From: Candidatus Saccharimonadota bacterium
GTDB lineage: Bacteria > Patescibacteriota > Saccharimonadia > Saccharimonadales > JACOTW01
Reading direction: 5' to 3'
Length of the DNA: 64,000 nt
Assembly: GCA_016178135.1 (NCBI GenBank)
Contig: JACOTW010000012.1
Location: forward strand, 1,064 to 65,063
Shown piece by piece: positions 15,596 to 58,452 of this stretch; within the stretch, counting starts at the first letter, position 1; the number at the start of each line of letters is the position of its first letter. The notes under the pieces were generated by a model that was given only the letters and a program-made list of their open reading frames with translations, was not told the DNA's origin and searched no databases. The position numbers were made by a program, and so were the translations under genes.

Positions 15596-15762
15596 TATAG
15601 CCCCCGCAAAACAAATTCGGGGGTTTTGGAGCCGATGATCTTCGAGTCAAAAACTGGCTTTTCCGAGGGAAGCATATCATTAGATAAGGTGAGTGAGGAA
15701 AGACAGCTTTTGGCCGGAGAGGGCGGTTCAAAAAGTCGTGAATTTGTTTTGCGGGGGCTATA
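15596..15762 (+). mobile_element. Family-B element, copy B2 (167 bp), intergenic
   Basis: Differs from B1 at 4 positions by manual alignment. Same orientation. Confidence 0.9.
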
Positions 15763-15765
15763 AGC

Positions 15766-16944: not shown

Positions 16945-17032
16945 GAATTTCTTAAGTAGTATACATCGAAAAAGGAAAAACTGTTTGCAACCGGCTTGGG
17001 ACAAGCTGGTATCAACGGCTAACTGGACCTGT

Positions 17033-17182
17033 CGCAAAACTCCTCCATCCCCAGATCGAATTCTATCGGCTACAAACAGTTTTTCTTCTCTCGATGTAGC
17101 TACGGCTACCTCTCCTTCAGACAAAACAGTTTTCGCTCAAGATAATTCACTCTGGGAACGGACGATTTTGCGACAGATCCAG
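17033..17182 (+). mobile_element. Family-A element, copy A4 (150 bp, CTGTCGC subtype), intergenic
   Basis: CTGGACCTGTCGCAAAAC ... ATTTTGCGACAGATCCAG. Flanks are CTAA and TTAA. Confidence 0.85.
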
Positions 17183-17200
17183 TTAAGTTCAGTAAAAAGA

Positions 17201-18559
17201 CTACGTTTCGAACGGTTCAGTGTGTTTGCTGTCTAAGCTACGGAATCGTTGTTTTTCTCTGTCAAAATATAATTCTATACCGCCGGTAGGACCATTACGA
17301 TGTTTTTTAATAAAGATATCAGCGATGTTTTTACGATCTGTTTCAGGATTATAATATTCTTCGCGGTAAATAAAAGCTACGACGTCAGCATCTTGTTCTA
17401 TGGAGCCCGATTCTCGTAGATCGGCTAGTTGTGGGATCTGTGGGCTGCGACTTTCTACCGAACGACTTAACTGACTTAGGGCAAGTACAGGCACGTTTAA
17501 TTCGCGGGCTACACCTTTAAGCCCACGCGAAATTTCTGAAATTTCCTGTACGCGATTGCTGTCGCCACCGTATCTCGCTCCACCACTCATAAGTTGCAAG
17601 TAGTCTACTACGATTAGTCCGAGCGGTCTGGTATGAGCTTCTCGTCTAGCTTTGGTGCGCAAATCACTAATGGTTATGCCGGGCGTATCATCAATAAATA
17701 TCTGGGCCTCTGAAAGTGTGCCCATGGCTTGGCCGATTTTTTCAAAGTCCGAATCGGTAAGATTTCCGGTACGTAGTGCCCAGGCATCAACGCCTGATTC
17801 CATGGCTAGTAAACGGTCGACGAGCTGTTCCTTGCTCATTTCCAAAGAAAAAATCAACACCGGTAATTCGGCTTTCGTGGCGATATTATGCGCCAAATTG
17901 AGGGATAATGCTGTTTTACCCATAGAAGGTCGAGCGGCAAGTATAATTAAGTCTGATGCTTGGAAACCGGCTAATTTTTCATCTAGATCTTTATAGCCAG
18001 TAGGAACGCCGCGAATTTTTCCCTTATCTTTATGTAGTTCATCCAATCTATCAAAACTTTCGGTAAGAATTGTTTCAAGACTGACGATGTCTTGTTTGAT
18101 ATGTTTTTGGCTAACATCAAAAAGTCGGCTCTCGGCTTCTTCTACTAACTCTTGGAGGCTTCTGGCTTCATCGTAACCTAATCCACTGATATCTTGCGAG
18201 GCCTTGATGAGTCGGCGGCGAAGGGCTTTTTGAGAGACGATTTGTGCGTACTGTTCAACGTGTGTTGCGGTTGGTACAAAATTAGTAAGCTCACTAAGGT
18301 ATGAAGCTCCGCCGACAAGATCCAAAAAACCAGCACTTTTTAGCTGATCCGCAAGAGTTAAGACATCTATGGGGCTGTGTTTTTCGTATAGACTAACGAC
18401 TGCTTCGTAGATTCGTCCATGACGTTCTTCGTAGAAATCGTCGGCAGTTAGACTATCGGCAACTTTAACGATAGCGTCGCTATCAATCAATATAGCGCCA
18501 AGCAGACTGGCTTCCGCCTCTATATTTTGTGGGGGGATTCGAACTCCTTCGGATTCCAT
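17201..18559 (-). CDS. dnaB: Replicative DNA helicase DnaB
   Basis: PPQNIEAEASLLGAIL N-terminus, Walker A ARPSMGKT, and the SGSIEQDADVV motif. Confidence 0.95.
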   Translation of the reverse strand: MESEGVRIPPQNIEAEASLLGAILIDSDAIVKVADSLTADDFYEERHGRIYEAVVSLYEKHSPIDVLTLADQLKSAGFLDLVGGASYLSELTNFVPTATHVEQYAQIVSQKALRRRLIKASQDISGLGYDEARSLQELVEEAESRLFDVSQKHIKQDIVSLETILTESFDRLDELHKDKGKIRGVPTGYKDLDEKLAGFQASDLIILAARPSMGKTALSLNLAHNIATKAELPVLIFSLEMSKEQLVDRLLAMESGVDAWALRTGNLTDSDFEKIGQAMGTLSEAQIFIDDTPGITISDLRTKARREAHTRPLGLIVVDYLQLMSGGARYGGDSNRVQEISEISRGLKGVARELNVPVLALSQLSRSVESRSPQIPQLADLRESGSIEQDADVVAFIYREEYYNPETDRKNIADIFIKKHRNGPTGGIELYFDREKQRFRSLDSKHTEPFET

Positions 18560-18563
18560 GTAT

Positions 18564-20279
18564 CTACTCTAGCACTTCAGCGCCACCGAAGATATTGCTT
18601 ATGGTTCCCAGTGCTGTTGACGGCGCTTTGATCACTGGTTTATCAATGGCGGACTGTACATCCATGTTCTTAACAACAATACAATTTATGGAAATTTTTT
18701 TACCAGTTTGTTCATACAAAATGGATTCGATTGTCGCTTTATTTTTGGATTCGTTAAGTTGTTTTTGATGAAATGGAAAGCCGAAGCTAAGGGTCAATAC
18801 GTCATCATTTAATTCTGCGGAAGCCATACGCGCAAGGCTATATAGTGTGTTGTGTTTGTTTTTTATAGCTACTAACGCGGCCGGCCATATATTAGATTCA
18901 TGCAAAGTCTTCTCGTTCCCAGACTGGCCAACCTCGGCTGATTCGATATTTTTGTCAGATAAGATTTTTTGCGGTTCTTGTTTTTGGATGGTAGTAGTCT
19001 GCTGGGAGGTGGTTTTTTTGGTGTGGTTCTTTGGAGTTTTCTTGTGCGATACGGGTAACGTGGCTGGTGGTGCTAAGCTCGATTTATGCGAAATCTCCGC
19101 ATCCCCAGACCAACTAATCTCAAGCGGTAGCGGTCTGCCTTCTTTCGATGTAACTAAGGCGGCTACCTCTCCTTCAGTCAAACCACTATCTGCTCGAGCT
19201 GATTTAGCCTGGGAACGGGCGATTTTGCGTAAGTCCAGTGAATGATCTTCTGATTCACTTTTGGCTAGCCCAGTAGAATGCGAGGTTTTGCGTAGGTCTA
19301 GGGACTGCTTTGTTTTGGTATTCTCCAGGGCTGCTCCGATAAGCGTGATTTCCAGCGCCGAGGCTGGATCGTGAGCAGTTGGTACGGTCAGTAACTTTTC
19401 CAAGATTGAGGTAAATGCAGATGGCTCAAAAGACCATTCGCCATCCAGTAGATCATGGCGTAATTGTGCACTTAGTTGTTTGGCTATTTGACCAGGGTGA
19501 AAGCCTTGCTCGGATAGTTCGTCAAGCAGTTTAACTACTTCTTTTGCTGCACCTTCACTAACGACCTTTTTAAGTTGTGTTATAACTGCATTGGGAGCAA
19601 TTCCCAAAACTTCAATAACGTTATTCTCGCTAATATTTTTACCACTACTTGCTATTTGGTCGAGTAGGCTTATGCTATCACGGAATGATCCATCCCCGTG
19701 TTTAGCTATAAGCTCAAGAGCACCGTCGTCTATGTCAATATTTTCTGATTTGGCAATTGTGCGCAGATGTTGCGCGACTTTATGGGTTTCTATCGGTTTA
19801 AAAGTAAAACGCTGAGTTCTGCTGATTATGGTTTCCGGCAATTTGTGGGCTTCTGTGGTTGCCAAAATAAAAATAGCGTGCGCTGGTGGCTCCTCAAGCG
19901 TTTTTAAGAGAGCGTTGAAAGCTTCTCGGGTCAGCATATGTACTTCATCAATAATGTAAACTTTGTATTTCGTGCTGGTCGGGGTATTGTGTACTCGTTC
20001 ACGAATTTCTCTAATTTCATCAATTCTTCGGTTGCTCGCGGCATCAATCTCAATAATATCGAGATGCGATCTATCATCATCGTAAGGCAAATTATTAACT
20101 TCATGCGCTAAAATTCTGGCAATACTGGTTTTACCAGTGCCACGTGGTCCAGTAAATAAATAGGCGTGACTTATAGAGTTATTTTTTATGGCATTCTTGA
20201 GGGTCGTGGTGATGTGTTCCTGTCCCACTATTTCAGATAATTTCTTAGGTCGGTATTTCCGATACAATGCTTTCCCCAT
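18564..20279 (-). CDS. dnaX: DNA polymerase III gamma/tau subunit with in-frame family-A element
   Basis: YRPKKLSEIVGQEH, GPRGTGKTS, IIDEVHMLT, LLKTLEEPP. Confidence 0.9.
   Translation of the reverse strand: MGKALYRKYRPKKLSEIVGQEHITTTLKNAIKNNSISHAYLFTGPRGTGKTSIARILAHEVNNLPYDDDRSHLDIIEIDAASNRRIDEIREIRERVHNTPTSTKYKVYIIDEVHMLTREAFNALLKTLEEPPAHAIFILATTEAHKLPETIISRTQRFTFKPIETHKVAQHLRTIAKSENIDIDDGALELIAKHGDGSFRDSISLLDQIASSGKNISENNVIEVLGIAPNAVITQLKKVVSEGAAKEVVKLLDELSEQGFHPGQIAKQLSAQLRHDLLDGEWSFEPSAFTSILEKLLTVPTAHDPASALEITLIGAALENTKTKQSLDLRKTSHSTGLAKSESEDHSLDLRKIARSQAKSARADSGLTEGEVAALVTSKEGRPLPLEISWSGDAEISHKSSLAPPATLPVSHKKTPKNHTKKTTSQQTTTIQKQEPQKILSDKNIESAEVGQSGNEKTLHESNIWPAALVAIKNKHNTLYSLARMASAELNDDVLTLSFGFPFHQKQLNESKNKATIESILYEQTGKKISINCIVVKNMDVQSAIDKPVIKAPSTALGTISNIFGGAEVLE
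19078..19238 (+). mobile_element. Family-A element, copy A5, intragenic in dnaX (left terminus degenerate)
   Basis: CTCGATTTATGCGAAATCTCCGCATCCCCAGACC ... GATTTTGCGTAAGTCCAG. Confidence 0.8.
19286..19301 (+). repeat. Orphan family-A right terminus inside dnaX
   Basis: TTTTGCGTAGGTCTAG, 47 nt from A5. Translated as a second LDLRK. Confidence 0.6.
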
Positions 20280-27676: not shown

Positions 27677-27836
27677 CTGGACCTGTCGCAAAACTCCCCC
27701 ATCCCCAGACCAATTCATCTCGGCTGGTAGCGGTCTGTCTTCTCTCGATGTAGCTATGGCTACCTCTCCTTCAGTCAAACCACTCCCACCTCGAACTGAT
27801 TTGCCCTGGGAACGGGCGATTTTGCGACAGGTCCAG
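27677..27836 (+). mobile_element. Family-A element, copy A6 (160 bp, CTGTCGC subtype), intergenic
   Basis: CTGGACCTGTCGCAAAAC ... ATTTTGCGACAGGTCCAG. Direct TCTA at 27673-76 and 27837-40. Confidence 0.9.
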
Positions 27837-27873: not shown

Positions 27874-28875
27874 CTATATACCGGCTGTAGATACTGGAAT
27901 ACTTGGACCCATAGAGGTAGTAACGTACAGGCTTTTTAGGTAGATGCCTTTTAGGCCAGTAGGTTTGGCGGACTTAATGCTAGCCATCACTGTTTCGGCA
28001 TTTTGAGCTAATTTTTCTTTGCCAAAACTTACTTTTCCAATACCAAGATGAATTATGCCAGTGCCATCAACGCGATATTCAACGCGTCCAGCCTTGGCCT
28101 CTTTCACTGCCTTTGCTACGTCGGTGGTTACAGTACCACTTTTAGGGTTTGGCATCAGACCTTTAGGCCCAAGAATACGCGCGTATTTACCCAACTTGGC
28201 CATTACTTTAGGTGTGGCGATTAATACGTCAAAATCCATAGTTCCTTTATCTAGCTGTTGAAGGAATTCTTCACTACCAGCAATGTCGGCACCAGCCTTC
28301 TTGGCGGCTGTTACATCGTTTGCCTCACCAAATACGGCGATGCGGATATTTTTACCCGTACCAGCAGGCAAAGTAACGGTTCCGCGAATATTTTGATCTG
28401 CTTGCTTAGGATCAACACCTAGTCGTATGTGTAATTCGACAGTGGCATCGAATTTAGCAGGATTGGTTATGGTAGCTAATTCAAGAGCTTCCGGCAGTTC
28501 ATATAATTTATCTTCGATAATTTGATCATGTAGCTTTCTATAATTTTTGCTACGGCGTTCTAGGCGTGTGCGGGGTTTCTTTTGTGCTGGTTTTATTGTT
28601 GCTTTTGCCTCAACTGTTTTACGCTCTTCTTTCTCTTGCTTGGCTACCGTTTCTTGGATGGCTTTAATACTTCTTTTGCCTGATTTCGCGAGTGGCTTAT
28701 CGGTCGTAGCGGAGGGCTTACTGGACTGACTCAAAGCTCCTTCATCTCTACTGGACTTAATAACCTCGGGTGCCACTTCTTTGATTGTGGTTGATGTCTT
28801 TTTCTTGACGGCGGTTGTTGGTAGCTTACTTTTTACTTTTTTTTCGGTCATGTGCTTTATCCTTTCGTGGTTCAA
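27874..28875 (-). CDS. rplA: 50S ribosomal protein L1 with an about 105-aa Lys/Thr/Ala-rich N-terminal extension
   Basis: FDATVELHIRLGVDPKQADQNIRGTV and the C-terminal L1 core. Confidence 0.9.
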   Translation of the reverse strand: MNHERIKHMTEKKVKSKLPTTAVKKKTSTTIKEVAPEVIKSSRDEGALSQSSKPSATTDKPLAKSGKRSIKAIQETVAKQEKEERKTVEAKATIKPAQKKPRTRLERRSKNYRKLHDQIIEDKLYELPEALELATITNPAKFDATVELHIRLGVDPKQADQNIRGTVTLPAGTGKNIRIAVFGEANDVTAAKKAGADIAGSEEFLQQLDKGTMDFDVLIATPKVMAKLGKYARILGPKGLMPNPKSGTVTTDVAKAVKEAKAGRVEYRVDGTGIIHLGIGKVSFGKEKLAQNAETVMASIKSAKPTGLKGIYLKSLYVTTSMGPSIPVSTAGI

Positions 28876-36229: not shown

Positions 36230-36306
36230 TGGCAGGGGTGGAGGGATTCGAACCCGCGGCCTTTGGTTTTGGAGACCAACGCTCTAACCAACTGAGCTAC
36301 ACCCCT
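36230..36306 (-). tRNA. tRNA-Trp (anticodon CCA), CCA encoded
   Basis: Reverse complement AGGGGTGTAGCTCAGTTGGTTAGAGCGTTGGTCTCCAAAACCAAAGGCCGCGGGTTCGAATCCCTCCACCCCTGCCA. Confidence 0.9.
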
Positions 36307-36377
36307 GTATGAATCCTTACGAACAGAGTAATCATACCGAAATTACGCTATTTTGTCATCAGCTATTTTGTGTGTAT

Positions 36378-36584
36378 CTAGTGTTTACGCGGTTTTACTT
36401 CGTTGCGACCTAATGATTTTTTGGTTTCGACGTATAAGACATGTTTGCGCAGTACGGGATCATATTTGCGAAGAGATAATTTATCTGGCGTATTCATGGT
36501 ATTTTTGGTCGTGTAATAATGTCGGCCTCCACTAGCTTCGGATACCATACCTATGATTTTTCGTTTGTCGCCTTTTTTTGCCAT
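36378..36584 (-). CDS. rpmG: 50S ribosomal protein L33 (Cys-less form, C-terminal extension)
   Basis: [55 protein letters not shown]. Confidence 0.85.
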
Positions 36585-36628
36585 AACTCAAAAAGTTTAA
36601 CAGATTAGAATAGAATATGCAATATCTA

Positions 36629-36785
36629 TTGGTCTTACGTAAAATCTCTTGTCTCCAGGGTGAATCGGCTCGAGCGAAAACGGTTTTATCCGAAGGAGAC
36701 GTACCCGAGCACATCGATAGTCGATAGAACTGTTTGTAGTCGAGATTAGTCGGTATAGGAATAAGGGAGTTCTAGCTAAGTTCAG
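36629..36785 (-). mobile_element. Family-A element, copy A10 (degenerate termini), between tRNA-Thr and rpmG
   Basis: TTGGTCTTACGTAAAATC...GGGAGTTCTAGCTAAGTTCAG. Ends 3 nt from the tRNA-Thr 3' end. Confidence 0.75.
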
Positions 36786-36788
36786 GTT

Positions 36789-36863
36789 TGGAGCCGTTGA
36801 CGAGAGTTGAACTCGTGACCCCCTCCTTACCATGGAGGTGCTCTACCACTGAGCTACAACGGC
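36789..36863 (-). tRNA. tRNA-Thr (anticodon GGU), CCA encoded
   Basis: Reverse complement GCCGTTGTAGCTCAGTGGTAGAGCACCTCCATGGTAAGGAGGGGGTCACGAGTTCAACTCTCGTCAACGGCTCCA. Confidence 0.9.
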
Positions 36864-36928
36864 AAATTTAACCTGATAATAGTAGCAAATTTACTTCGTT
36901 TTTGCTACACTTTAGAACTGTTACGAGT

Positions 36929-37004
36929 GCCACCTTAGCTCAGTGGCTAGAGCAACACTTTTGTAAAGTGAAGGTCGTCGGTTCGAATCCGACAGGTGGC
37001 TCCA
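36929..37004 (+). tRNA. tRNA-Thr (anticodon UGU), CCA encoded
   Basis: GCCACCTTAGCTCAGTGGCTAGAGCAACACTTTTGTAAAGTGAAGGTCGTCGGTTCGAATCCGACAGGTGGCTCCA. Confidence 0.9.
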
Positions 37005-37013
37005 GTTTTAAAC

Positions 37014-37099
37014 GCAGGGTTAGTGAAGCGGTCAAACACGGCAGACTGTAAATCTGCTGGCTTATGCCTTCGTAGGTTCGAATCCTACACCCTGCACCA
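37014..37099 (+). tRNA. tRNA-Tyr (anticodon GUA), long variable arm, CCA encoded
   Basis: GCAGGGTTAGTGAAGCGGTCAAACACGGCAGACTGTAAATCTGCTGGCTTATGCCTTCGTAGGTTCGAATCCTACACCCTGCACCA. Confidence 0.9.
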
Positions 37100-37163
37100 A
37101 AGCCCTTATGCTGGCCTTGTCTATAAACTTGAGTTATACTAAAATTACATAAAGGAGTAAAAC

Positions 37164-37538
37164 ATGGCTCGCATCAATGAAGTACTACCAATAGTTGTCG
37201 ACCCAAATCATGAACGATTTGGACATATAGGTGAAATGGTTTTCTCAGGTGCTTCTGGTGACGGGACCTGCATCATTAAGTTTGAAGATGGAGAAGAAGC
37301 TCATCTTAATGATGGTTGGCTAACAGGTGTACCGCAGTTTGTAGCACCATTACGAACTGAAGAAGCTGGAGTTCGTCGACTTAAAGACGCATTACCAGAG
37401 ATGCAAAAAGCTCTTAGAGAGCTAGCCGACAAAGTAACTGAGCCGAGAAAGCAACCCCCAGCCGAGGAGACACTTACTACACGTGCAGGTTTCGTTGCCC
37501 TAATTAATAAAGTGCTTTTTGAGACAACAACCAAATAA
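37164..37538 (+). CDS. Hypothetical protein (island cassette 1)
   Basis: 124-aa ORF with AAAGGAG SD 7 nt upstream. Confidence 0.5.
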   Translation: MARINEVLPIVVDPNHERFGHIGEMVFSGASGDGTCIIKFEDGEEAHLNDGWLTGVPQFVAPLRTEEAGVRRLKDALPEMQKALRELADKVTEPRKQPPAEETLTTRAGFVALINKVLFETTTK

Positions 37539-37567
37539 TCCAGGGAGTTTTTTGTTATACTCAGTGT

Positions 37568-38103
37568 ATGGAGAAACCTAAACTACTGCTCATAAAAACT
37601 GGCGGAACGATCGATGGTTGCGTACCTGAATATATATAGAGATTGAGCAAATTGCTAATCTTTTCAATGATTCAGTTAACTTCAGCAAACACATTACTCA
37701 AAGCTTTAAAGCTGCCGTTCAGTTTTCAGAATTCGAAGTCTGCAAGAAGGATAGTCGTAGTATAACTGATAGCGACCGAAGAATTATAAGTGAGGTCATT
37801 GGGCGTGAATTTCAGCAAGGCACTAAGAAGTTTCTGATTACACACGGTACATTTACAATGTCTGAGACAGGTGAATTTCTCATAAACAATCTGCCTAAGG
37901 ATGTTCTGGCTAGTTCCACCATCATATTAACTGGCGCAATGTATCCATGGAACGTTTATGGGTCTGACGCCCCAATGAACTTGGGAGCGTCTATATCCCA
38001 ATTAATTTCCGAGCATGTCAGTGGTGTTTGGATCTGTATGCACGGAAAGTTATTTGACCCACGAAAAGTTAATAAAGATGCTGAAAAGCGTATATTTGAG
38101 TAG
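37568..38103 (+). pseudogene. L-asparaginase-like gene interrupted by a +2 frameshift in a (TA)4 tract
   Basis: Frame 2: MEKPKLLLIKTGGTIDG...EYI then a stop at 37637-39. The next frame continues ...FLITHGTFTMSETG...ILTGAMYP... Deleting one TA restores a 177-aa ORF. Confidence 0.7.
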
Positions 38104-38125
38104 ATCGAGCAAGCGCAAAAAGTAA

Positions 38126-38166
38126 AGTTCTGACCTCAGACATGACCCTGCACCAAAGCATAAGCA
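38126..38166 (+). repeat. tRNA-Tyr 3'-end-like direct repeat R1
   Basis: AGTTCTGACCTCAGACATGACCCTGCACCAAAGCATAAGCA. A 15-nt exact match (ACCCTGCACCAAAGC) to 37089-37103. Confidence 0.8.
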
Positions 38167-42251: not shown

Positions 42252-43121
42252 CTACAGACTGACCATAAGTGAACTTAATAATAGCTTAATATTGGGTTTG
42301 TGTTTAAGCGATGTTTCGGCTTTAAAAAGTTCTTGCATTCGCAAATGCCAGCGTTTGCTCAAAGTCAAGTCGCCTTTTTCGATAGATTGAATCAGCGCCG
42401 CTCGGCTAACTTGTTTTAGTGCGTAGAAAAGCGAGGTAAGTTCTTCTTTTTTACCAACAAGACTATCGACTTCTATCAGTCGCTGATACGTGGTTGATCC
42501 CAGGAGCTTTTTAGCCAGATTCACATGTTGGTTCAATATGTTTTCTGTGTTTTGAGTCAAGAGGCTGTGCATTAGTCCAATCTGCCCACTACTTACGTGG
42601 TATGCTCGAACGATTTCTTGATTGGTAATTCCCTGCTTGCTAAAAAAATCAATAAGCTCTGTTTTTGATGGAGCGAGTAAACGGGCGTGCTGTACCCTTG
42701 AATATATCGTACTACGCAAACCACGTTCGCCATTTTCGGTTAGGATGATTCTTGTATCAAGTGGCGGCTCTTCTAGTATTTTTAAAAGAGCATTTTGAGC
42801 TTCTATGGTCATACTTTCTGAATTTTCTATTACAATAACCCGACGAATCGTTGCTTTGCCCGATGTTTTAAGTTGAAGAAAATGCCGCAAATCTCGTACA
42901 GCATCGATGCCAAGTGAATTTTCACCCCCCCGTAAACGCATGAATCCTGGATTGATAATAAGCTTGTCGAGCTTGACATCAAGTAATCTACCGGCAAGAT
43001 TTAATGCTACGAATTTTTTGCCCGCGCCATTTGGACCACTGATGAGCAGGGCGTGTGCTTGGCTTTTAATGAATTGCTCAAGTTGTGCGGAAACTGTTTT
43101 ATTTATTAATAAGTCCATCAC
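42252..43121 (-). CDS. holB: DNA polymerase III delta' subunit
   Basis: LLISGPNGAGKKF, AQNALLKILEEPP. Confidence 0.75.
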   Translation of the reverse strand: MMDLLINKTVSAQLEQFIKSQAHALLISGPNGAGKKFVALNLAGRLLDVKLDKLIINPGFMRLRGGENSLGIDAVRDLRHFLQLKTSGKATIRRVIVIENSESMTIEAQNALLKILEEPPLDTRIILTENGERGLRSTIYSRVQHARLLAPSKTELIDFFSKQGITNQEIVRAYHVSSGQIGLMHSLLTQNTENILNQHVNLAKKLLGSTTYQRLIEVDSLVGKKEELTSLFYALKQVSRAALIQSIEKGDLTLSKRWHLRMQELFKAETSLKHKPNIKLLLSSLMVSL

Positions 43122-44188
43122 GAATCCAGTAAATTAAAAAATTCTTCGGGTACTGGCACCTGAAATGTCATGTGCTTACCATTTTTCAGTGTAAGCTCTA
43201 GTTTTTCGGCGTGAAGGTATAGCCGATCAGCGGACTGGCCGTCGTATATCGTATCCCCTACAATAGGATAGCCTAGCTTTTTTAAGTGCACGCGTAGTTG
43301 ATGGGTGTGCTCAGTGCGCGGTTTTAGTTCAACTAAATCATAATTTTTTCCTGATTTAACAACATTGTATTCCGTTTGTGCCGTTTTGCCATTTATGCCA
43401 GTTCTAAATGTCTGTGGATGCTTAGGATTCCGCTCTATAGGCATATCAATAATCGCATGCGCAGGTATAATATGGCCAAAAACCACTGCTTTATAAGTTT
43501 TATATACCTTACGTGTAGAGAATTGCTTTTGAAGCCAGCTAAGCGAAGTATTGTTTTTGGCGCAAATAATAACCCCAGAGGTCGCCCTATCCAGACGATG
43601 AACAATCCCCTCTCGAGTTTGCATGGAAGATTTCTGCGAGTCCGATAAACTGGACTTACCCAAAGCTCCCTCATCCCCAGACCGACTAACCTCGGCTACA
43701 AACAGTTTTTCCTCTCTCGATGTACCTTCAGGTACCTCTCCTTCAGACAAAACTGTTTTCGCTCGAGCTGATTCGCCCTGGGAACGAGGGATTTTGCGTA
43801 AGTCCAGTAAACTAGTATTTTGTTGTCTAGCATGTTTATTCAAGTGATCGAATAGCCAAGTTGCGATGGTTGCTTCGGGATTGAACGCTCCTTTGCTGTG
43901 CGTCAACAACCCAGCTGGTTTATTTATAACAACACAGTCGTCATCTTCGTACAAAACCGGCAATTCTATTCTGGGTATATCTTCAGTTGTATTTGGATCA
44001 AAATCAATGTTAATTTGATCTTCTAACCTTAGTTTATATCCGGTTTTTTTGATCTCGTCTCCTACAGTTATAAACCCTCGGTTGCATAATTTTTGAACAT
44101 GCGCCCTACTGATTTGAGGTAATTTGTTATGTACAAAAACATCAAGCCTCTCTCCTGCAGAGGTTTTAGGCACCGTTACTTGTATCAT
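43118..44188 (-). CDS. rluD: RluD-type 23S rRNA pseudouridine synthase (S4 domain + RluA core) with in-frame family-A element
   Basis: N-terminal S4 domain (ERLDVFV...). Catalytic HRLDRATSGVIICAKN. Confidence 0.85.
   Translation of the reverse strand: MIQVTVPKTSAGERLDVFVHNKLPQISRAHVQKLCNRGFITVGDEIKKTGYKLRLEDQINIDFDPNTTEDIPRIELPVLYEDDDCVVINKPAGLLTHSKGAFNPEATIATWLFDHLNKHARQQNTSLLDLRKIPRSQGESARAKTVLSEGEVPEGTSREEKLFVAEVSRSGDEGALGKSSLSDSQKSSMQTREGIVHRLDRATSGVIICAKNNTSLSWLQKQFSTRKVYKTYKAVVFGHIIPAHAIIDMPIERNPKHPQTFRTGINGKTAQTEYNVVKSGKNYDLVELKPRTEHTHQLRVHLKKLGYPIVGDTIYDGQSADRLYLHAEKLELTLKNGKHMTFQVPVPEEFFNLLDS
43650..43807 (+). mobile_element. Family-A element, copy A11 (158 bp), intragenic in rluD
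   Basis: CTGGACTTACCCAAAG...ATTTTGCGTAAGTCCAG. Direct TAAA at 43646-49 and 43808-11. Confidence 0.9.
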
Positions 44189-44189: not shown

Positions 44190-45275
44190 CTACGTACGCA
44201 ATCCTACGGCTTTTTGAACTTTAGCGAGTATTGTTTCAGCAATTTTACACATAGCGGTCTCGCTCATTGCCAACTTTTGCTCCAATGCTTTAGTATCAAC
44301 CATTTCTAATTTTGTCTGAAAATCCTCTAAAAATTGCCCCGTTAATATCGCGACGGCTTCTTTGAGTGGACCGTATTGCTTGGAACCGATAAATTCATGC
44401 TTTCTTCCGCCGAATAGCTCTAAAATATCCAATAAATTACTTATACCTGGCTGGGTAGTATAGTCATATTTGATCTCGCCTAGACTATCAGTAGTTGCGG
44501 ATTGAATTTTTTTGTGAGCTTGTTCCGGCGTATCATTTAAGAATATAACTCCCTTGCCCGATGCATCTGATTTACTCATTTTTTTAGCGGGATCAAGTAA
44601 ATCGCGTATACGTAGACCTTGGTCTTTGCCGAAAAATTCATGCTGCTCTTTAGCTGATTTCGGTACGATAAATAATTCACCAAACTTACTATTCATTCTT
44701 TCGGCAATATCACGTGTAAATTCCAGGTGTTGTTTTTGGTCATCTCCAACCGGTACGTATATAGCCCCATACAAAAGTATATCCGCAGCCATAAGTACAG
44801 GATAATCGAATAGCCCCATACTTACATGATTTTGTTGAAACGCATTCTTTGGATTAGCAGAAAAGGAATCTTGTCGAGCTGATTCACCCTGAGAACGAGG
44901 GATTTTGCGTAAGTCCAGTTTATCCTTAAACTGGGTCATGCGAGACATCTCTCCAAATCCAGTAAAACTATTCAGAATTATAGTAAGCTCACTATGTGCC
45001 GGCACATAACTTTGACGATAAATGTGTATATTTGGGTTGTCCAGCGGCAAACCAGCGGCTGCAAATACCCGCAGGTTATTCATAATGCCAGCCTGAAGTT
45101 GGCTGTGATCAATCGGTGTAGTAAAACTATGTAAGTCCGGAACGAACAAATTGATTTGATAATCATCGGCATGCCGTCGAGCCATATCAATTATAGGCAA
45201 AAGCGCCCCCAGATAGTTGCCTATATGTAGGTCATTATTAGCCCTAAGTCCGGTCAAAATCACTGGCTTATTCAT
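44190..45275 (-). CDS. trpS: Tryptophanyl-tRNA synthetase with a 15-codon family-A remnant
   Basis: HIGNYLGA (HIGH), KMSKS, YPVLMAADILLY. ATG at 45275 is chosen because upstream residues are translated repeat A13. Confidence 0.9.
   Translation of the reverse strand: MNKPVILTGLRANNDLHIGNYLGALLPIIDMARRHADDYQINLFVPDLHSFTTPIDHSQLQAGIMNNLRVFAAAGLPLDNPNIHIYRQSYVPAHSELTIILNSFTGFGEMSRMTQFKDKLDLRKIPRSQGESARQDSFSANPKNAFQQNHVSMGLFDYPVLMAADILLYGAIYVPVGDDQKQHLEFTRDIAERMNSKFGELFIVPKSAKEQHEFFGKDQGLRIRDLLDPAKKMSKSDASGKGVIFLNDTPEQAHKKIQSATTDSLGEIKYDYTTQPGISNLLDILELFGGRKHEFIGSKQYGPLKEAVAILTGQFLEDFQTKLEMVDTKALEQKLAMSETAMCKIAETILAKVQKAVGLRT
44874..44918 (+). repeat. Family-A right-arm remnant (45 nt) inside trpS
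   Basis: TCGAGCTGATTCACCCTGAGAACGAGGGATTTTGCGTAAGTCCAG followed by TTTA. Confidence 0.85.
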
Positions 45276-45327: not shown

Positions 45328-45484
45328 TAGGACTTACGCACTTTGTTACCAATGCCAGAGTGTAGCTGGGTGAGCGAAAACGGTTCAGGTTCTGGAGGGG
45401 TAGCCATAGCTACACCGAGAGAACATGGGCCGTTTGTAGCCACATAGGTTAAGTCTGGTGTGGTAAGAAAGTGCGTAAGTCCTA
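45328..45484 (-). mobile_element. Family-A element, copy A13 (157 bp), between rpsI and trpS
   Basis: TAGGACTTACGCACTTT ... AAAGTGCGTAAGTCCTA. Flanked by TATA on both sides. Confidence 0.8.
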
Positions 45485-45491
45485 TATAATT

Positions 45492-46342: not shown

Positions 46343-46810
46343 TTATTCCTTCTCCTCGGTCTTTGTTGGCTGTTTTTTGGTAGCAGCAGGTTTACTGGTA
46401 TTGGCTTTTTTAACAGTGGTAGCTTTTGCTACAGGCGCTTCTTTTAGATCATCAACAAAACTAATTCTGGCCATTTGACTGTTATCGCCACGACGTAAAA
46501 CAGTTCGCTCTATTCGCAGATGGCCACTTGTTCGACCTTTTAGCTTTGGAGCAATGTCGTCAACCAGCTTATGGGCCATTTCAACTGTCTGTAGATCGGC
46601 AATTATCTGTCGCCGATTATGAAGATCACCTTTTTTTGCTTTAGTGATCAGGTGTTCAACATAAGGGGCTACCTCCTTAGCTTTTGGCAAAGTAGTTTCA
46701 ATCGATTCATATTTAATGAGTGACTCTGCCAGACTCTTGATGAGTGCTGTTCGTTGATCGCGTTCTCTGTGAAACTTCCGACCTTTATATCCATGCCTAT
46801 GCATAGTCAA
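46343..46810 (-). CDS. rplQ: 50S ribosomal protein L17
   Basis: MHRHGYKGRKFHRERDQRTALIKSLAESLI. Confidence 0.9.
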   Translation of the reverse strand: MTMHRHGYKGRKFHRERDQRTALIKSLAESLIKYESIETTLPKAKEVAPYVEHLITKAKKGDLHNRRQIIADLQTVEMAHKLVDDIAPKLKGRTSGHLRIERTVLRRGDNSQMARISFVDDLKEAPVAKATTVKKANTSKPAATKKQPTKTEEKE

Positions 46811-46936
46811 CCTCCGGCTGTAATAATTCGGAATTCGTATAACGTATACTGGACTTGTACAGAGTCGCTTGCTCCCATACCAAAGGAGAGATATCTGAGT
46901 TTACTGTTTTACGTTCTACGCTACACGCACTGTTCA

Positions 46937-47881
46937 TTATAGTTCCAGTTCTGCCATTTTCTCTTTAGCTTCATCTAGGGCTTTGCTACCGAAACCTTTA
47001 AGTTCGCGCAACTCGCTATCACTAAGTGAAAAAAGATCCTTTAGTGTATGAATATCGTTATTAATAAGCGCATTTGTAGTACGCGCTGACAAATTTAGAT
47101 CTTCTATGGGTGTCATTAATTCCGCAGTATCATCGTTGTCAAATTCTATATGTTGGTCTTCTTTTTCTTTGGCATGTGGGGACGAGACTTCAATGCGAGT
47201 TTGACCGGCCAAGGCAGTGTATTGATTGACTAATATAGCCGATGCTTCTTCGAAAGCGTCGCTTGGGCTTATAGAACCGTCAGTGTCGATTGTTATAAGC
47301 AATTTGTCTAGGTCGGTCATCTGCCCTACGCGAGTATTCTCTATTTTGTAACGAACACGCAGAACGGGACTAAAGATAGCATCAAGTGCTATCATATCCG
47401 TATTTTTACGGCTAGAACCTTCTTCTATTGTCCGGTAACCTCTGCCAGTTTCTACTACTAAGTCCATGGTCAGATTTGATTTATCATCATCTATTGTGGC
47501 AATTAGATGTTCTGGATTTACGACTTCAACATCAGCATTTTTCTGGATATCTTTAGCTGTAACCTTACCCTTGCCATTCTTAACAATTCGCAAGGTTTGA
47601 GGTTCATCGCTAAAGATACGAAAACGAACACTCTTAAGATTAAGCATGATATCTACGATGTCTTCTTTTACACCTGGTAAGGTAGTAAATTCGTGCGAAG
47701 CACCTTCAACCTTGAAGGCAGTAATTGCTGCTCCGGCTATCGAAGATAGTAATACGCGCCGTAAACTATTACCAAGAGTCATTCCGTAGCCCGTGTGTAG
47801 GGGTTCGATGACAAACGTTGCGCTAGAAGGACCATGCTCATCAACGCTGACTAGTCCTGGGGTATGAATTATTTTTGACAT
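46937..47881 (-). CDS. rpoA: DNA-directed RNA polymerase alpha subunit
   Basis: N-terminal domain GYGMTLGNSLRRVLLSSI. C-terminal domain LNLSARTTNALINNDIHTLKDL. Confidence 0.95.
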   Translation of the reverse strand: MSKIIHTPGLVSVDEHGPSSATFVIEPLHTGYGMTLGNSLRRVLLSSIAGAAITAFKVEGASHEFTTLPGVKEDIVDIMLNLKSVRFRIFSDEPQTLRIVKNGKGKVTAKDIQKNADVEVVNPEHLIATIDDDKSNLTMDLVVETGRGYRTIEEGSSRKNTDMIALDAIFSPVLRVRYKIENTRVGQMTDLDKLLITIDTDGSISPSDAFEEASAILVNQYTALAGQTRIEVSSPHAKEKEDQHIEFDNDDTAELMTPIEDLNLSARTTNALINNDIHTLKDLFSLSDSELRELKGFGSKALDEAKEKMAELEL

Positions 47882-48995: not shown

Positions 48996-49382
48996 TTACG
49001 TCTTTGATGCTGATTTAGGTTGTGAACCACCAATAGCGGTTTTTTTACCGCGCTTAGTGCGAGCATTTGTACGAGTACGTTGTCCACGCACCGGTAAACT
49101 AGCTTTATGTCTGATTCCTCGGTAGCTATTAATGTCTTTGAGGCGCTTAATATTCGTGCTGACAATGCGTTGTAACTCACCCTCGACGGTATACTTTTCA
49201 TTAATTAAATCTTGGATGCGGGAAATTTCATTGTCAGTAAGATTTTTAACACGTACTGTTGGCTCAATTTTAGCTGAAGTTAGGATATCCGCACTGGATT
49301 TTGGCCCAATACCATACACATAAGTCAAGGCTACATGGACTTGCTTGCCGTCTGGAATAACTACGCCTGAAATTCTAGCCAC
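48996..49382 (-). CDS. rpsM: 30S ribosomal protein S13 (GTG start)
   Basis: ARISGVVIPDGKQVHVALTYVYGIG... Confidence 0.95.
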   Translation of the reverse strand: MARISGVVIPDGKQVHVALTYVYGIGPKSSADILTSAKIEPTVRVKNLTDNEISRIQDLINEKYTVEGELQRIVSTNIKRLKDINSYRGIRHKASLPVRGQRTRTNARTKRGKKTAIGGSQPKSASKT

Positions 49383-49408
49383 GAGATACCTCTTTTCGAG
49401 AGCTTAAA

Positions 49409-49551
49409 CTGGATTTACGCAAAACCGCTCGTTTCCAAAGTGATTCAGACCGACCCAAAACAGTTTTACCTGAAGGTACATCAAAAGAATAAAAACCGTT
49501 TGTAGCCGAACTGAATCGGCCTGGGGATGAGGGAGTTTTGGGTAAGTTCAG
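49409..49551 (-). mobile_element. Family-A element, copy A14 (143 bp, eroded), between rpmJ and rpsM
   Basis: CTGGATTTACGCAAAACCGCTCG...GGGAGTTTTGGGTAAGTTCAG. Confidence 0.8.
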
Positions 49552-49608
49552 CATACGACTAAATCCGACCGCTGTATTAGCTGCATTATATGTTCCATGC
49601 ATAAAATA

Positions 49609-52993: not shown

Positions 52994-53533
52994 TTATTTA
53001 TCCTTACCTGACTTACCACTCTTACGAATTATTCGTTCGCCAACATATTTTATGCCTTTACCTTTATAAGGTTCAGGTTTTTTTAATGCTCGGATTTCGG
53101 CAGCAACTTGTCCTACCTGTTGCTTATTTATACCAGTTATAGTAATGATGTTCTGCTCTACCAAAGCCCCAACATCATCAGGAATCTTGTATATAACATC
53201 GTGAGAAAAACCAAGATTAAGCTTAAGGTTAGTGCCTGCCGGAGCTACACGATAACCAACTCCGTTTAGTTCAAGCTGCTTAGAAAAACCAGATGAAACA
53301 CCGACCACCATATTATCAACAAGCGAACGCATCAACCCATGTTTGGATCGTGTAACCGGTTCGTCATTGGCGCGTGTTACAAGGAGTTGATCACCATCCT
53401 GTTTGACTGTAATGTCAGGCATAGTAAATTGTACCAAACTACCCTTGGGGCCTGTAACTGTAATATTTTCTGGATCAACAGTAACTGTCACGCCGGTCGG
53501 TAGGGTGATCGGCTGTTTTCCTATACGACTCAT
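52994..53533 (-). CDS. rplF: 50S ribosomal protein L6
   Basis: MSRIGKQPITLPTGVTVTV... Confidence 0.95.
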   Translation of the reverse strand: MSRIGKQPITLPTGVTVTVDPENITVTGPKGSLVQFTMPDITVKQDGDQLLVTRANDEPVTRSKHGLMRSLVDNMVVGVSSGFSKQLELNGVGYRVAPAGTNLKLNLGFSHDVIYKIPDDVGALVEQNIITITGINKQQVGQVAAEIRALKKPEPYKGKGIKYVGERIIRKSGKSGKDK

Positions 53534-53575
53534 AACAAGAAACCTCCGATTGCGGTAGTAATTTGTAGATATAAA

Positions 53576-53733
53576 CTGGACTTACGCAAAATCGCCCGTT
53601 CCCAGGCTAAATCAGCTCGAGTTGGGAGTGGTTTGACTGAAGGAGAGGTAGCCATAGCTACATCGAGAGAAGACAAACCGCTATCAGCCGAGATGAATTG
53701 GTCTGGGGATGGGGGAGCTTTGCGTAAGTCGAG
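53576..53733 (-). mobile_element. Family-A element, copy A15 (158 bp), between rpsH and rplF
   Basis: CTGGACTTACGCAAAATCGCCCG...GAGCTTTGCGTAAGTCGAG. Direct TAAA at 53572-75 and 53734-37. Confidence 0.9.
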
Positions 53734-53811
53734 TAAAGTATTATCACAAGCCTCCATAAGACCTGTCCTAACCATTCTATATTCTACGTTATATGTTGCT
53801 TTACTCATCTT

Positions 53812-54201
53812 TTAGTATACCTTGCATATTAATTCACCACCAATACTCTGTTTTTTAGCTTGATCGCCAGTCATGAGTCCTTTGGATGTTGAAACAATTA
53901 CCATGCCACGTCCGCGTTTAACGACCGGAATTTCAGTAGCACCAACGTAATGCCTGCGACCAGGGCTACTTAATCGAGCAATCTCAGTAATTTTAGAATT
54001 GGTGTCAGCTGAATTGATTACAATACGTAGCGTTTTGCCAACAACGGCATCTTCAACGAACACGCCATTAATAAAACCATTATCTTTCAATAAGCGAGCT
54101 ACCGCTTCCTTTAACTTGGAGTGGGGTAATTGTATTTCGTTTTTGCGAACGGCAATCGCGTTACGGATACGTGACAACATATCAGCTATAGGATCAGTCA
54201 T
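53812..54201 (-). CDS. rpsH: 30S ribosomal protein S8
   Basis: MTDPIADMLSRIRNA. ATG at 54201. Confidence 0.95.
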   Translation of the reverse strand: MTDPIADMLSRIRNAIAVRKNEIQLPHSKLKEAVARLLKDNGFINGVFVEDAVVGKTLRIVINSADTNSKITEIARLSSPGRRHYVGATEIPVVKRGRGMVIVSTSKGLMTGDQAKKQSIGGELICKVY

Positions 54202-54322
54202 GGGCAACCTCCATTTGCGGCACCATAGGATCACTGCTATTACACATTATACCAATAATCCGTAAACAGTCATCGACGGTTGTTATCTTTAAAATTTCAA
54301 GATTTATATACATATCTTCTCC

Positions 54323-54592
54323 TTACCAGCTCGCCTTTGTTACACCAGGTATTTCGCCCTTACTGGCGTGCTCGCGAAATGCCAAACGACTCAAGCCAAA
54401 TTGACGCATATATCCACGAGGACGTCCGCTTTCTATGCAACGATTCTTCTGTCTAGTAGGTGACGAATTGCGTGGCAAGTAGTACAAGCCTTCGCGATCA
54501 CCCATAGATTTAAATTCAGCACGTTTGACCGCGTATTTATCAATCATTTTGGCGCGTTTTAGGTCGCGCGCGATACTGGATTTCTTAGCCAC
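54323..54592 (-). CDS. rpsN: 30S ribosomal protein S14 (long, Cys-less form; GTG start)
   Basis: [19 protein letters not shown]...[24 protein letters not shown]. Confidence 0.9.
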
Positions 54593-54736
54593 GAGAAGCC
54601 TCTTTTCGGAAGCCTAAAAACTCTTCGGAACCTTGGGCGGTCAGTTGTAGCAATACGAGGTTCGTACAATGCATAACGACTGACTTCAATAAGGTCGTAT
54701 CATTCGTTGCGTGTTCTATGCTATATGTTCTACGCA

Positions 54737-55339
54737 TTATTTCTTCTCCTTTTCAAATAATTTACTCTGGTTTTTTTCAAAAGGCATACCAAGTTTCTCT
54801 AGCAACGCTCTACTATGAGACGGTTCAACGGCGTTAATGACGATTATGATCTGTAGGCCGTGAGATGTTGTGGTTTCCTCAAAAGTTAATTCTGGAAAAA
54901 CTGATTGATCAACAATGCCGATACTATAATTACCTTGCGCGTCAAAAGCCTTGGCGCTTACACCGTGAAAATCGCGCAGTCGCGGTAATACTAGACTAAT
55001 GAAACGATCAAGAAACTCGTACATACGATCTCCGCGCAATGTTACTTTGAGACCGATTTTATTGCCTTCACGCAACTTAAAACCGGCGATAGAGTTCTTG
55101 GCGATTGTTCCAATGGGCTGAAGGCCAGTTATCTTACGTAAAGTATTTTCGGCGGTCTCCATCATCTTCTTGTCGTCCTTGGTGCGTCCCAAACCAACAT
55201 TCAGGACAACCTTCTCAATACTAGGTACTTGATGACGGTTCTTTAGTTTTAGTTCTTTATGTAGCTCTGCGACAAGTTGCTGATTGTACAGCGACTTTAA
55301 GCGTACAGTTGTAATGCTGGGATTTTTAGTTGCAACCAT
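54737..55339 (-). CDS. rplE: 50S ribosomal protein L5
   Basis: RLKSLYNQQLV...VVLNVGLG. ATG at 55339 is preceded by AGGAG. Confidence 0.9.
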   Translation of the reverse strand: MVATKNPSITTVRLKSLYNQQLVAELHKELKLKNRHQVPSIEKVVLNVGLGRTKDDKKMMETAENTLRKITGLQPIGTIAKNSIAGFKLREGNKIGLKVTLRGDRMYEFLDRFISLVLPRLRDFHGVSAKAFDAQGNYSIGIVDQSVFPELTFEETTTSHGLQIIIVINAVEPSHSRALLEKLGMPFEKNQSKLFEKEKK

Positions 55340-57185: not shown

Positions 57186-57818
57186 TTAAGCAACCTCGCC
57201 TTTATAAATCCAGACCTTAACGCCAATCAATCCAGCGCCAGGATATTTTGCTGTTGCACTATAAAAATCAATATCAGCCCGAACTGTATGTAACGGAACA
57301 CTTCCCTGAACTTCTTTTTCGCGGCGCGACATCTCCGCGCCATTTAATCGACCAGCGATTTCGATACGTACACCCTTTGCGCCGGCGCGCATAGTAGCAG
57401 CTGCTCCGGCTTTCATGGCTCGACGAAAAGAAATACGGCGTTCAATTTGATGGGCAATGTTTTCGGCAACTAATTTGGCATAAAGCTCTGGCTTTTTAAG
57501 TTCCTCAATGTTCACGCGAACTGGTACAGCGTAAATCTTTTCAAAGGCTACTTTTAGTTCCTGTGCGCCACTTCCGCCTCGACCAATAACCACGCCAGCC
57601 TTCGCTGTGCTGATAGTTATAGATACCAAGTTAGGGGATCGTTCAATATCAACCTTATTAATAGCTGCACGGCTGCCAAGCTTATTCTGTATTAGGCGTC
57701 GTACGGCAAGGTCTTGCGTCAAAAATTGAGCATAATTACGCTTATTGGCAAACCACTTACTACGCCAGTCTTTGTTAAGCTGTAGTCGCATTGAGATTGG
57801 ATTTACTTTTTGTCCCAT
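57186..57818 (-). CDS. rpsC: 30S ribosomal protein S3
   Basis: [25 protein letters not shown] domain. Confidence 0.95.
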
Positions 57819-57848
57819 TATACGATTCCCCTAGAATTATTGAATAGA

Positions 57849-57991
57849 CTTGACTTACGCAAAATCGCTCGTTCCCAAGGCGAATTAGCTCGAGCGAAAA
57901 TAGTTTTGTCTGAAGATACATCGAGATATGAAAAACTGTTTGCAAGCGAGGTTATTCGGTCTTCGGATAGGACAACTTTGTATGAGTCCAG
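57849..57991 (-). mobile_element. Family-A element, copy A16 (143 bp), between rplV and rpsC
   Basis: CTTGACTTACGCAAAATCGCTCG...CTTTGTATGAGTCCAG. Direct TAGA at 57845-48 and 57992-95. Confidence 0.85.
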
Positions 57992-58077
57992 TAGAGGCCT
58001 ATGGGATAGCCCCCAGCGAATTACCAGATACGAAGACCTGTTATCTATTACCTGTAATCTGTAATCTGATAATTTCA

Positions 58078-58452
58078 TTATTTTGTCTCCTTGGCGACAA
58101 TAGGTTTTTTGGGTGTGCGCATTTCGCCGTCAACAATTACGCGAATATGAGCGCTACGACGCTGAAACGGCAGGGCGCGGCCTTGGGCTGCTGGACGAAA
58201 ACGCTTCAAACTTGGACCAGGTGTAACTTCTATAGAAACAATTTGTAATGTTTCGATCTTAAAATTATGATTATGATCAGCGTTTGCCCGAACACTTTCA
58301 ATAACCTTTTTTACTGGCAAAGCGGCACGGCGCGGAGTATGTTCAAGAATCGTTATCGCATCAGCTACACTACGGCCACGAACAAGTGAAGCTACAATTC
58401 CAAGCTTACGCGGACTCATACGAACACCTTTAGCAACAGCCTTAACTGGCAT
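58078..58452 (-). CDS. rplV: 50S ribosomal protein L22
   Basis: VRMSPRKLGIVASLVRGRSVADAITILEHTP. Confidence 0.95.
   Translation of the reverse strand: MPVKAVAKGVRMSPRKLGIVASLVRGRSVADAITILEHTPRRAALPVKKVIESVRANADHNHNFKIETLQIVSIEVTPGPSLKRFRPAAQGRALPFQRRSAHIRVIVDGEMRTPKKPIVAKETK

Follow-up and report, generated by a model that had tools for sequence, protein, structure and literature searches.

The window, i.e. the whole stretch of 64,000 nt that was analysed, carries on its minus strand a ribosomal-protein operon in which rpsH and rplF are separated by a gap of 278 nt (53534-53811). As the original prediction had it, this gap holds a full-length copy of a 158-bp repeat, called family A below, at 53576-53733, with its TAAA duplication intact. 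Element and duplication make up 162 of the 278 nt. The other 116 nt are unique non-element DNA: the window has no second copy of them, and the element profile does not match them. The features of the locus are the following.

52994-53533, minus strand: rplF (ribosomal protein L6), complete
53530-53808, minus strand: bridging ORF of 92 codons, beginning with an ATG 3 nt past the rpsH TAA and ending in a TGA that overlaps the rplF ATG (ATGA)
53534-53571, minus strand: non-element spacer on the rplF side, 38 nt, with the rplF Shine-Dalgarno GGAGG at 53543-53547
53572-53575 and 53734-53737: left and right copies of the target-site duplication TAAA, a perfect pair
53576-53733, plus strand: full-length 158-bp family-A element, reverse relative to the operon
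53576-53590, plus strand: left terminal inverted repeat CTGGACTTACGCAAA
53719-53733, plus strand: right terminal inverted repeat TTTGCGTAAGTCGAG, with 1 mismatch relative to the consensus ...GTCCAG
53738-53811, minus strand: non-element spacer on the rpsH side, 74 nt, holding the first 24 codons of the bridging ORF and the motif ACGTAGAAT
53812-54201, minus strand: rpsH (ribosomal protein S8), complete

The feature between rpsH and rplF is a copy of a non-autonomous palindromic MITE family of Saccharibacteria. A 33-nt probe taken from the element end gave 5 matches in the window, where 0 were expected (100 shuffles), and BLAST together with a profile built from the copies brought the count in the 64 kb to 11 full-length and at least 6 partial copies, a density of about 1 copy per 4 kb. 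Five full-length copies were found in the adjoining 19.6-kb locus L087, which is the left extension of the window, and the family also occurs in genomes of other Saccharibacteria, as well as in 28 more metagenome contigs. Its members are 158 bp long, with terminal inverted repeats of ~15 bp and 4-bp TNNA target duplications. Most copies end in CTGGACTTACGCAAA and TTTGCGTAAGTCCAG, the inverted termini expected of a MITE, while in a second type of terminus CTGGACCTGTCGCAAA is paired with its own complement. Perfect 4-bp duplications flank 16 of the 29 non-redundant full-length copies collected from the window, L087 and the 28 metagenome contigs; they are TAAA/TTTA, TAGA/TCTA, TATA, TTAA and TCAA, every one a TNNA. 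Since the flanks of the other copies vary within this TNNA pattern, TAAA is a true target-site duplication, located outside the element. For the three window copies with the second terminus, boundaries were corrected by eye, which gave two perfect TAGA duplications and one matching at three of four positions (TTAA/TTAG). The family falls into two subfamilies, and 11 of the 41 hairpin pairs show compensatory double changes, as in the apical GTAGC/GCTAC vs GTACC/GGTAC. The copy between rpsH and rplF is 95% identical to the copy at 3740-3897, and 93% identical to those at 914-1071 and 27687-27836.

Mobility of the family could be read from a comparison with contig JBFOMR010000191.1, which belongs to a sister strain, 99.0-99.7% identical to the window. 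The copy concerned belongs to the variant subfamily.

45329-45488, plus strand: variant-subfamily copy with termini AGGACTTACGC; JBFOMR010000191.1 has a collinear empty site

The filled and empty sites differ by 162 nt, between strains 99-99.7% identical. At another site, in rplA, the sister strain has a full in-frame copy, and a remnant of ~30 nt is found in the window. No transposase was detected among the 20 window ORFs scanned, and the only frames of the element encode a 52-aa repeat peptide which has no Pfam match. Paired termini 1.3 kb apart in loci L095 and L106 were considered as a candidate autonomous element, and rejected as two separate copies flanking host genes. Plasmid and phage collections gave no match to the element. 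With Rfam 15, the gap had no match at gathering score, and nothing was found at E <= 10 across 53400-53950. A literature search returned no MITE paper on Saccharibacteria.

Relatives of the L6 protein all belong to Candidatus Saccharibacteria/Saccharimonadales, and the next-nearest L6 among 5.8 billion proteins, after the two strains, is 81% identical. The rpsH-rplF copy is present and identical in both strains, which differ at other element sites. The insertion had been described as relatively recent, and the word holds in a relative sense only: the copy is 5-7% away from its nearest siblings, it is shared without change by the two strains, and the next L6 is as distant as stated. No empty allele of this site was recovered: the exact junction pattern was unmatched in JGI metagenomes, and contigs with an identical L6, S8 or InfA all come from the same organism, all of them carrying the element or breaking in it. 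The genome with locus tags HY003 (MAG GCA_016196105.1) was considered as an independent replicate and rejected, its contig JACPYE010000005.1 being 100% identical to the window over 6.66 kb, i.e. it is the window's own genome. The organism also occurs in the sequencing runs SRR12113388, SRR12113416, SRR12113417, SRR25508618 and SRR25508638.

Most full-length copies, including the one between rpsH and rplF, have one stop-free frame per strand, open from the first base. As a consequence of the palindromic termini, this frame reads LDLRK...LRKSS in both orientations. Element plus duplication amount to 162 nt, i.e. 54 codons, meaning that a copy landing at codon position 1 extends the frame rather than breaking it. 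All copies located within ORFs of at least 150 codons (10 of 10) begin at codon position 1, and about 1/3 of the full-length copies lie within ORFs of at least 200 codons. In-frame copies in genes include the following.

914-1071, minus strand: copy in a UvrD/AddA-like gene (1021 aa, running off the left end of the window)
19078-19238, minus strand: copy in dnaX (18564-20279)
43650-43807, minus strand: full-length copy in a gene of the RluA pseudouridine synthase family (43118-44188)
44874-44918, minus strand: partial copy in trpS
Locus L095: copy in a FolC-like gene

The 62-aa insert of the RluA-family protein is missing from four Saccharibacteria homologues. By its predicted reading frames, the presence of in-frame copies inside essential genes shows that the ribosomes of the window organism must translate through the element hairpin. 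The antisense frames, on the untranslated strand, are also open in most copies, which means that open frames are largely inherited from a master copy, and less the product of selection after insertion. A protein search with the forward-orientation peptide returned short ORFs only and missed the dnaX and RluA-family genes of the window itself; having missed known in-gene copies, it is uninformative as to how frequent such copies are.

The original prediction had taken the copy for a hairpin in an untranslated spacer. This view is not supported: the copy lies in the element's open frame within the 92-codon ORF that runs from 53808 down to 53530, where it occupies codons 26-78 and begins at codon position 1. 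The public gene call for this ORF starts at the in-frame ATG 53757 and predicts a product of 75 aa. A tryptic peptide, APPSPDQFISADSGLSSLDVAMATSPSVKPLPTR, is encoded in the predicted ORF, whose product has no match to a Pfam family. When the 110 non-element nt of the ORF alone were shuffled, the frame remained open in 4.8% of the trials. The first ATG, at 53808, has no obvious Shine-Dalgarno. The GGAGG of rplF itself is situated 9 nt upstream of the rplF ATG, so that coupling may be dispensable for rplF.

We then compared the spacers of the S10-spc-alpha operons with those of relatives. Medians were taken over 16-27 relatives, and six junctions were found expanded in the window. In the list below, each is given with the spacer, the value in relatives, the bridging ORF and, where there is one, the element copy.

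rplV-rpsC: window spacer 259 nt, relatives' median 0 (range -1 to 3); bridging ORF of 86 codons, 57818-58078, minus strand, with a TAATG overlap at each end; degenerate copy of 143 bp at 57849-57991, plus strand, with a central deletion and a TAGA duplication
rplE-rpsN: window spacer 144 nt, relatives' median -1 (range -1 to 1); bridging ORF of 50 codons, 54585-54737, minus strand, without recognisable element
rpsN-rpsH: window spacer 121 nt, relatives' median 28; bridging ORF of 39 codons, 54194-54313, minus strand, without recognisable element
rpsH-rplF: window spacer 278 nt, relatives' median 36 (~20 in the nine closest); bridging ORF of 92 codons; full-length copy
rpmJ-rpsM: window spacer 226 nt, relatives' median 2; bridging ORF of 75 codons, 49375-49602, minus strand; degenerate copy at 49409-49551, plus strand
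rpoA-rplQ: window spacer 126 nt, relatives' median 1; bridging ORF of 46 codons, 46797-46937, minus strand, with an in-frame remnant of the element end, ...PLVWEQATLYKSS

All six expanded junctions are spanned whole by sense ORFs, the ends of which overlap or abut the flanking genes. Family-A copies are found in three of them, and a fourth (rpoA-rplQ) holds an end remnant. Pairwise similarity among the six spacers is marginal. For the three element-holding junctions, the probabilities obtained by shuffling the flanks only have a product of 6×10−4; taken one by one, the short bridging ORFs do not stand out against a best-of-three-frames null (P = 0.09-0.45). The two strains differ by too few substitutions for a constraint test on the bridging ORFs, with zero in 5 of the 6 spacers. 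In the atp operon of the same genome, copies bridge atpG-atpD and atpD-atpC, with ATGA/TTGA overlaps. These cases come from one and the same genome, given the identity of HY003 with the window, and the sample is biased, since it was found through a protein database, which contains called ORFs only. Copies located between genes outside such operons, for example 3740-3897, 27679-27836 and 3167-3323 of L087, are not spanned by a sense ORF.

The insertion had been placed in one of the most conserved operons of bacteria, a description which fails in this lineage, given the six expanded junctions. The related claim, that the rpsH-rplF spacer is normally very short, stands for the nine closest Saccharibacteria loci, where it measures 1-30 nt, but not for other Saccharibacteria, in which unrelated inserts of 88 nt to 6.7 kb occupy this junction; in the window itself, element and duplication account for only part of the gap. 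In three of these other genomes (L014, L023 and L028) the rpsH-rplF inserts are palindromic, 88-165 nt long, and have stops in every frame. A second arrangement was met in L023 (JBAQIV010000069.1, a Saccharimonadales MAG), where 8 copies of an unrelated repeat of ~105 nt are present within 20 kb, 93-100% identical to each other and 8 of 8 in gene sense. The junctions so filled are rplW-rplB, rplV-rpsC, rplP-rpmC, rplR-rpsE, rpmJ-rpsM, rpsK-rpsD, rpoA-rplQ and rplM-rpsI. Each copy holds an ORF of ~36 codons that overlaps or abuts its neighbours at both ends, its ATG meeting the upstream stop and its own stop the downstream ATG; a GGAG precedes that downstream ATG by 7-9 nt. The profile of this junction repeat had no match in the window, and the L023 repeat is therefore an analogue of family A, not a homologue.

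At the RNA level, the element folds in operon sense with -61.3 kcal/mol (z = -6.3), and the whole 278-nt gap with -85.9 kcal/mol (z = -4.2). Co-transcription with rplF had been proposed, and the element must indeed belong to the rplF mRNA: only 38 nt separate the element from the rplF start, and promoter-like sites are absent from the element and from the stretch between element and rplF. The gap has a sole promoter-like match, at 53769-53740, which lies upstream of the element; matches of this kind occur at background frequency. Terminator-like matches are likewise near background (4 found vs 1.2 ± 1.2 expected); a weak one lies inside the element, at 53607-53594, and none was found between element and rplF. 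In operon sense, a UUUAUAU begins 3 nt after the stem. The window's copies are split 7:7 between the two orientations relative to gene sense, a ratio that speaks against a regulatory role dependent on orientation in this family.

We propose, with a probability of about 0.55, that the element is selfish DNA and that translation through it, as part of a small bridging ORF, is what makes it tolerated. The copy would have landed in phase in a pre-existing spacer of ~116 nt, already spanned by a small ORF. Ribosomes leaving rpsH would re-initiate on the bridging ORF and translate through the element, and this would keep the -61 kcal/mol hairpin melted. Termination would take place on the rplF start codon, the ORF thus keeping ribosomes on the mRNA between rpsH and rplF. 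Given this ORF geometry, the read-through and the termination at the rplF start, the insertion should neither block nor uncouple the expression of rplF and the genes downstream. We infer translation of the bridging ORF, and with it the reason why the copy is tolerated; the best explanation for the locus would then be an element without host function of its own, whose persistence was allowed by the bridging ORF. The roles suggested earlier for the hairpin, as RNase III site, stabiliser or attenuator, appear less likely, since a translated stretch would be a poor candidate for a stable 75-bp duplex.

A rather unlikely alternative, though one with several points in its favour, is that the insertion is a neutral passenger: the 92-codon ORF would result from the intrinsic frame of the element plus luck in 38 flanking codons, and rplF would use its own Shine-Dalgarno. 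The GGAGG of rplF is indeed correctly spaced, the chance of open flanks is ~5% at rpsH-rplF and 9-45% for the short spacers, inserts devoid of ORF are tolerated at rpsH-rplF in relatives, and the antisense frames of most copies are open as well. Luck accounts poorly, however, for the bridging of all six expanded window junctions and of the two atp-operon ones, with stops that overlap or abut the next starts, while copies outside such operons are unbridged; the analogous architecture in L023 (8 of 8 copies) points in the same direction. Unlikely also is a role as an untranslated structured RNA, in which the 75-bp hairpin would serve as a processing site for RNase III or another RNase, or as a stabiliser, splitting or protecting the rpsH and rplF segments. 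In its favour are the very stable operon-sense fold and the pairs that covary across copies, and it has precedents, as the paired Correia termini are cut by RNase III and ERIC alters mRNA decay (PMC10969869); the ORF-less, unrelated palindromic hairpins at rpsH-rplF in three Saccharibacteria hint that such structures are harmless there, and possibly useful. Yet covariation is equally expected from a palindrome serving transposition, the family lacks an orientation bias, and Rfam gave no match, even at E <= 10. The copy is in frame in an ORF abutting both neighbours and so probably covered by ribosomes, and the same element sits in essential coding sequences, where cleavage would be harmful.

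An attenuator or terminator, in which the hairpin followed by UUUAUAU would terminate part of the transcripts and lower the expression of rplF and downstream genes, is very improbable. The U tract 3 nt past the stem and the weak terminator-like site within the element could be taken to suggest it, but the tract is short and interrupted, it comes from the target site and not from the element, and the number of terminator-like matches is near background; moreover the essential rplF, rplR, rpsE, rplO and secY are downstream, with no promoter predicted between them and the element. There is scarcely any chance that the ORF yields a functional small protein of 92 aa (or 75 aa). A gene caller does predict this product, and related peptides have been called in the genomes of other Saccharibacteria, but every such 'protein' is a further copy of the repeat, set between unrelated flanks, and the repeat encodes 58% of the product, which has no Pfam match and is missing at this locus in all relatives. 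Hardly more credible is an assembly artefact, by which the repeat would have been misplaced into the spacer. Such joins do occur, as the short contig L004 of another assembly is a chimera in which the flank of copy 914-1071 is joined via the repeat to the rplF side, and it was rejected as an alternative arrangement. However, two NCBI assemblies reproduce both unique junctions, as do independent Logan contigs built from several sequencing runs, and the duplication is intact. The Logan contigs end inside the element, 23 nt from its rplF-side and ~33 nt from its rpsH-side edge, as expected of an assembler meeting a repeat.

Translation through the bridging ORF may be one instance of a wider rule, which we put forward tentatively, as its chances fall somewhat short of even. 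Small repeats would settle, as translated relay ORFs, where a stop meets a start in the ribosomal-protein, rpoA and ATP-synthase operons of Saccharibacteria; such an ORF would start at the upstream stop, carry the Shine-Dalgarno of the next gene, end on its start, and so pass the coupling on. The family-A MITE would persist at such junctions only when in frame, as in ordinary genes. If this were true, selfish DNA would have a hitherto undescribed means of inhabiting the most constrained operons, and Saccharibacteria would make dozens of repeat-encoded junk peptides. Translation of the bridging ORFs would also provide a simple, testable rule for the tolerance of insertions in translationally coupled operons. 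Few known genomes are as small and streamlined as those of CPR, Saccharibacteria included, and to our knowledge they are not noted for repeat expansions. Family A nonetheless occupies essential genes and ribosomal-protein operons, despite a streamlined genome; streamlining need not exclude selfish DNA when the element is built for read-through.

The family is new for Saccharibacteria, and in its behaviour it is RPE-like. The Rickettsia palindromic elements (RPE; Ogata et al. 2000, as described in PMC10969869 and PMC3184786) are inserted in frame in unrelated, often essential genes. Both families are palindromic and multi-copy, measure ~105-150 bp, have an open frame and live in a small reduced genome, and frequent in-frame insertion in unrelated protein-coding genes is a trait of family A as well. 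The hosts belong to unrelated phyla, Alphaproteobacteria for RPE and Saccharibacteria/CPR for family A. Family A differs from RPE in that its terminal repeats are clear, its target duplications are 4-bp TNNA and one of its sites is polymorphic, filled or empty; its frame is open in both orientations, and its copies are also found in intercistronic ORFs inside operons. As the hosts differ, and as the likeness is one of behaviour, we call family A RPE-like rather than a member of RPE.

Other repeats are close in one respect or another. The Correia elements of Neisseria (NEMIS) are MITEs close in size to family A (about 104-157 bp). They are often transcribed together with their neighbours and form a long hairpin, but they duplicate TA, whereas family A duplicates a 4-bp TNNA. 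They also carry IHF sites and promoters and are cut by RNase III, none of which was found for family A; the copy between rpsH and rplF sits in an ORF. ERIC and the intragenic MITE ORFs of Enterobacteria, as well as QMITE1 of Coxiella, are co-transcribed intercistronic or intragenic repeats, some with frames fused to host ORFs (PMC10969869, PMC3184786); a systematic repeat ORF running from the upstream stop to the downstream start is not reported in the sources consulted. The nearest precedent for the Shine-Dalgarno-carrying L023 inserts, and possibly for the window spacers, is found in the REP2 repeats of Neisseria and the IR repeats of Borrelia. REP2 differs in being a promoter/RBS cassette upstream of genes, and not an ORF relaying translation between two cistrons. 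For annotation, the bridging ORFs, if translated, would carry a practical warning as well: dozens of 'hypothetical proteins' in such genomes are copies of repeats, and contigs break or turn chimeric at these places.

When the window was compared with L119 and L123, two loci of a sister strain (contig JBFOMR010000191.1; strains 99.0-99.7% identical), the indels coincided with repeat copies.

Indel sites between the window and L119/L123 (window positions)
45329-45488, a 162-nt site filled in the window and empty in the sister strain
28736-28750, indel
33873, indel of the second repeat family
35611, indel of the second repeat family
40545, indel of the second repeat family

The last three involve a second repeat family, GGGCCAAAGAGGGTGATTCGAAAAGTCGGGAATTTGTTTTGCGGGGGCTATA, which is polymorphic between both strains at 33.87 kb, 35.61 kb and 40.54 kb of the window and at the corresponding places of L123; weak matches to the centre of the family-A profile came from this same family. 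A larger difference is a segment of about 1.04 kb (37104-38144), present in the window and missing from the sister strain, which adjoins a tRNA cluster (tRNAs at 36233-37096) and contains small ORFs without Pfam match. A diverged family-A copy (36629-36785) within the cluster has a tRNA gene on either side (36233-36306 and 36792-36863); should these genes be co-transcribed, the copy would belong to a tRNA precursor transcript.

Copies were also found inside protein genes. In rplA, the sister strain has a full in-frame copy, whereas only a remnant of about 30 nt is left in the window. In both strains the conserved core of ribosomal protein L1 (window 27874-28854, L123 11676-12791) is preceded by about 90-100 extra N-terminal residues, and it is within this extension that the copy or remnant sits. 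The RluA-family synthase gene at 43118-44188, which carries an in-frame copy, encodes PRTEHTHQLR at a position conserved as P(K/E)TGRTHQ(L/I)R in four homologues; this gene may be decaying. The element is moreover a break or mis-join point in short-read assemblies of the window's organism, and one public contig, L004 (JBFOMS010052322.1), is a chimera in which two distant loci are fused via the element.

Insertions into the rpsH-rplF junction seem to recur across the phylum. Six Saccharibacteria that are more distantly related (L022, L025, L027, L032, L034 and L035) have the two genes split by 0.7-6.7 kb, and L020 has a 64-codon ORF at the junction. In three other loci rpsH and rplF are separated by unrelated palindromic inserts, AT-rich and 88-165 nt long, which are built from short tandem motifs (GAATGAAGTAT..., GATTTTGGAT..., GGAATAT...) and have stops in all frames.

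Palindromic inserts between rpsH and rplF
L014, 9913-10000
L023, 9836-10000
L028, 9905-10000

L023 (JBAQIV010000069.1, a Saccharimonadales MAG) also has, at 4385-19463, eight copies of a repeat of about 105-111 nt. They share 93-100% identity, all run in gene sense, and each fits one junction exactly, with ribosomal-protein or rpoA genes on both sides. Tandem ATGCAAC heptamers open every copy at the stop codon of the upstream gene, making an ATG available in all three frames, and the copy encodes about 36 aa (MQ..CNMQHGIIAFGTVSSHFAYPILPNPATE..). Its ORF stops on or adjoining the ATG of the downstream gene, 7-9 nt upstream of which a GGAG is found.

In the window, the motif RCGTAGAAY, a pattern picked after the data were seen, occurs 6 times versus 1.67 expected. 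Half of these sites lie no more than ~30 nt into bridging ORFs, the small sense ORFs that fill expanded ribosomal-operon spacers.

RCGTAGAAY sites in bridging ORFs
46913-46921
53781-53789
54727-54735

Finally, the stretches ending in the GTG start codons of rpsN (54586-54618) and rpsM (49375-49407) are identical at 27 of 33 nt (TTTAGGCTTCCGAAAAGAGGCTTCTCGTGGCTA versus TTTAAGCTCTCGAAAAGAGGTATCTCGTGGCTA), a likeness that points to a common insert end or to gene conversion.
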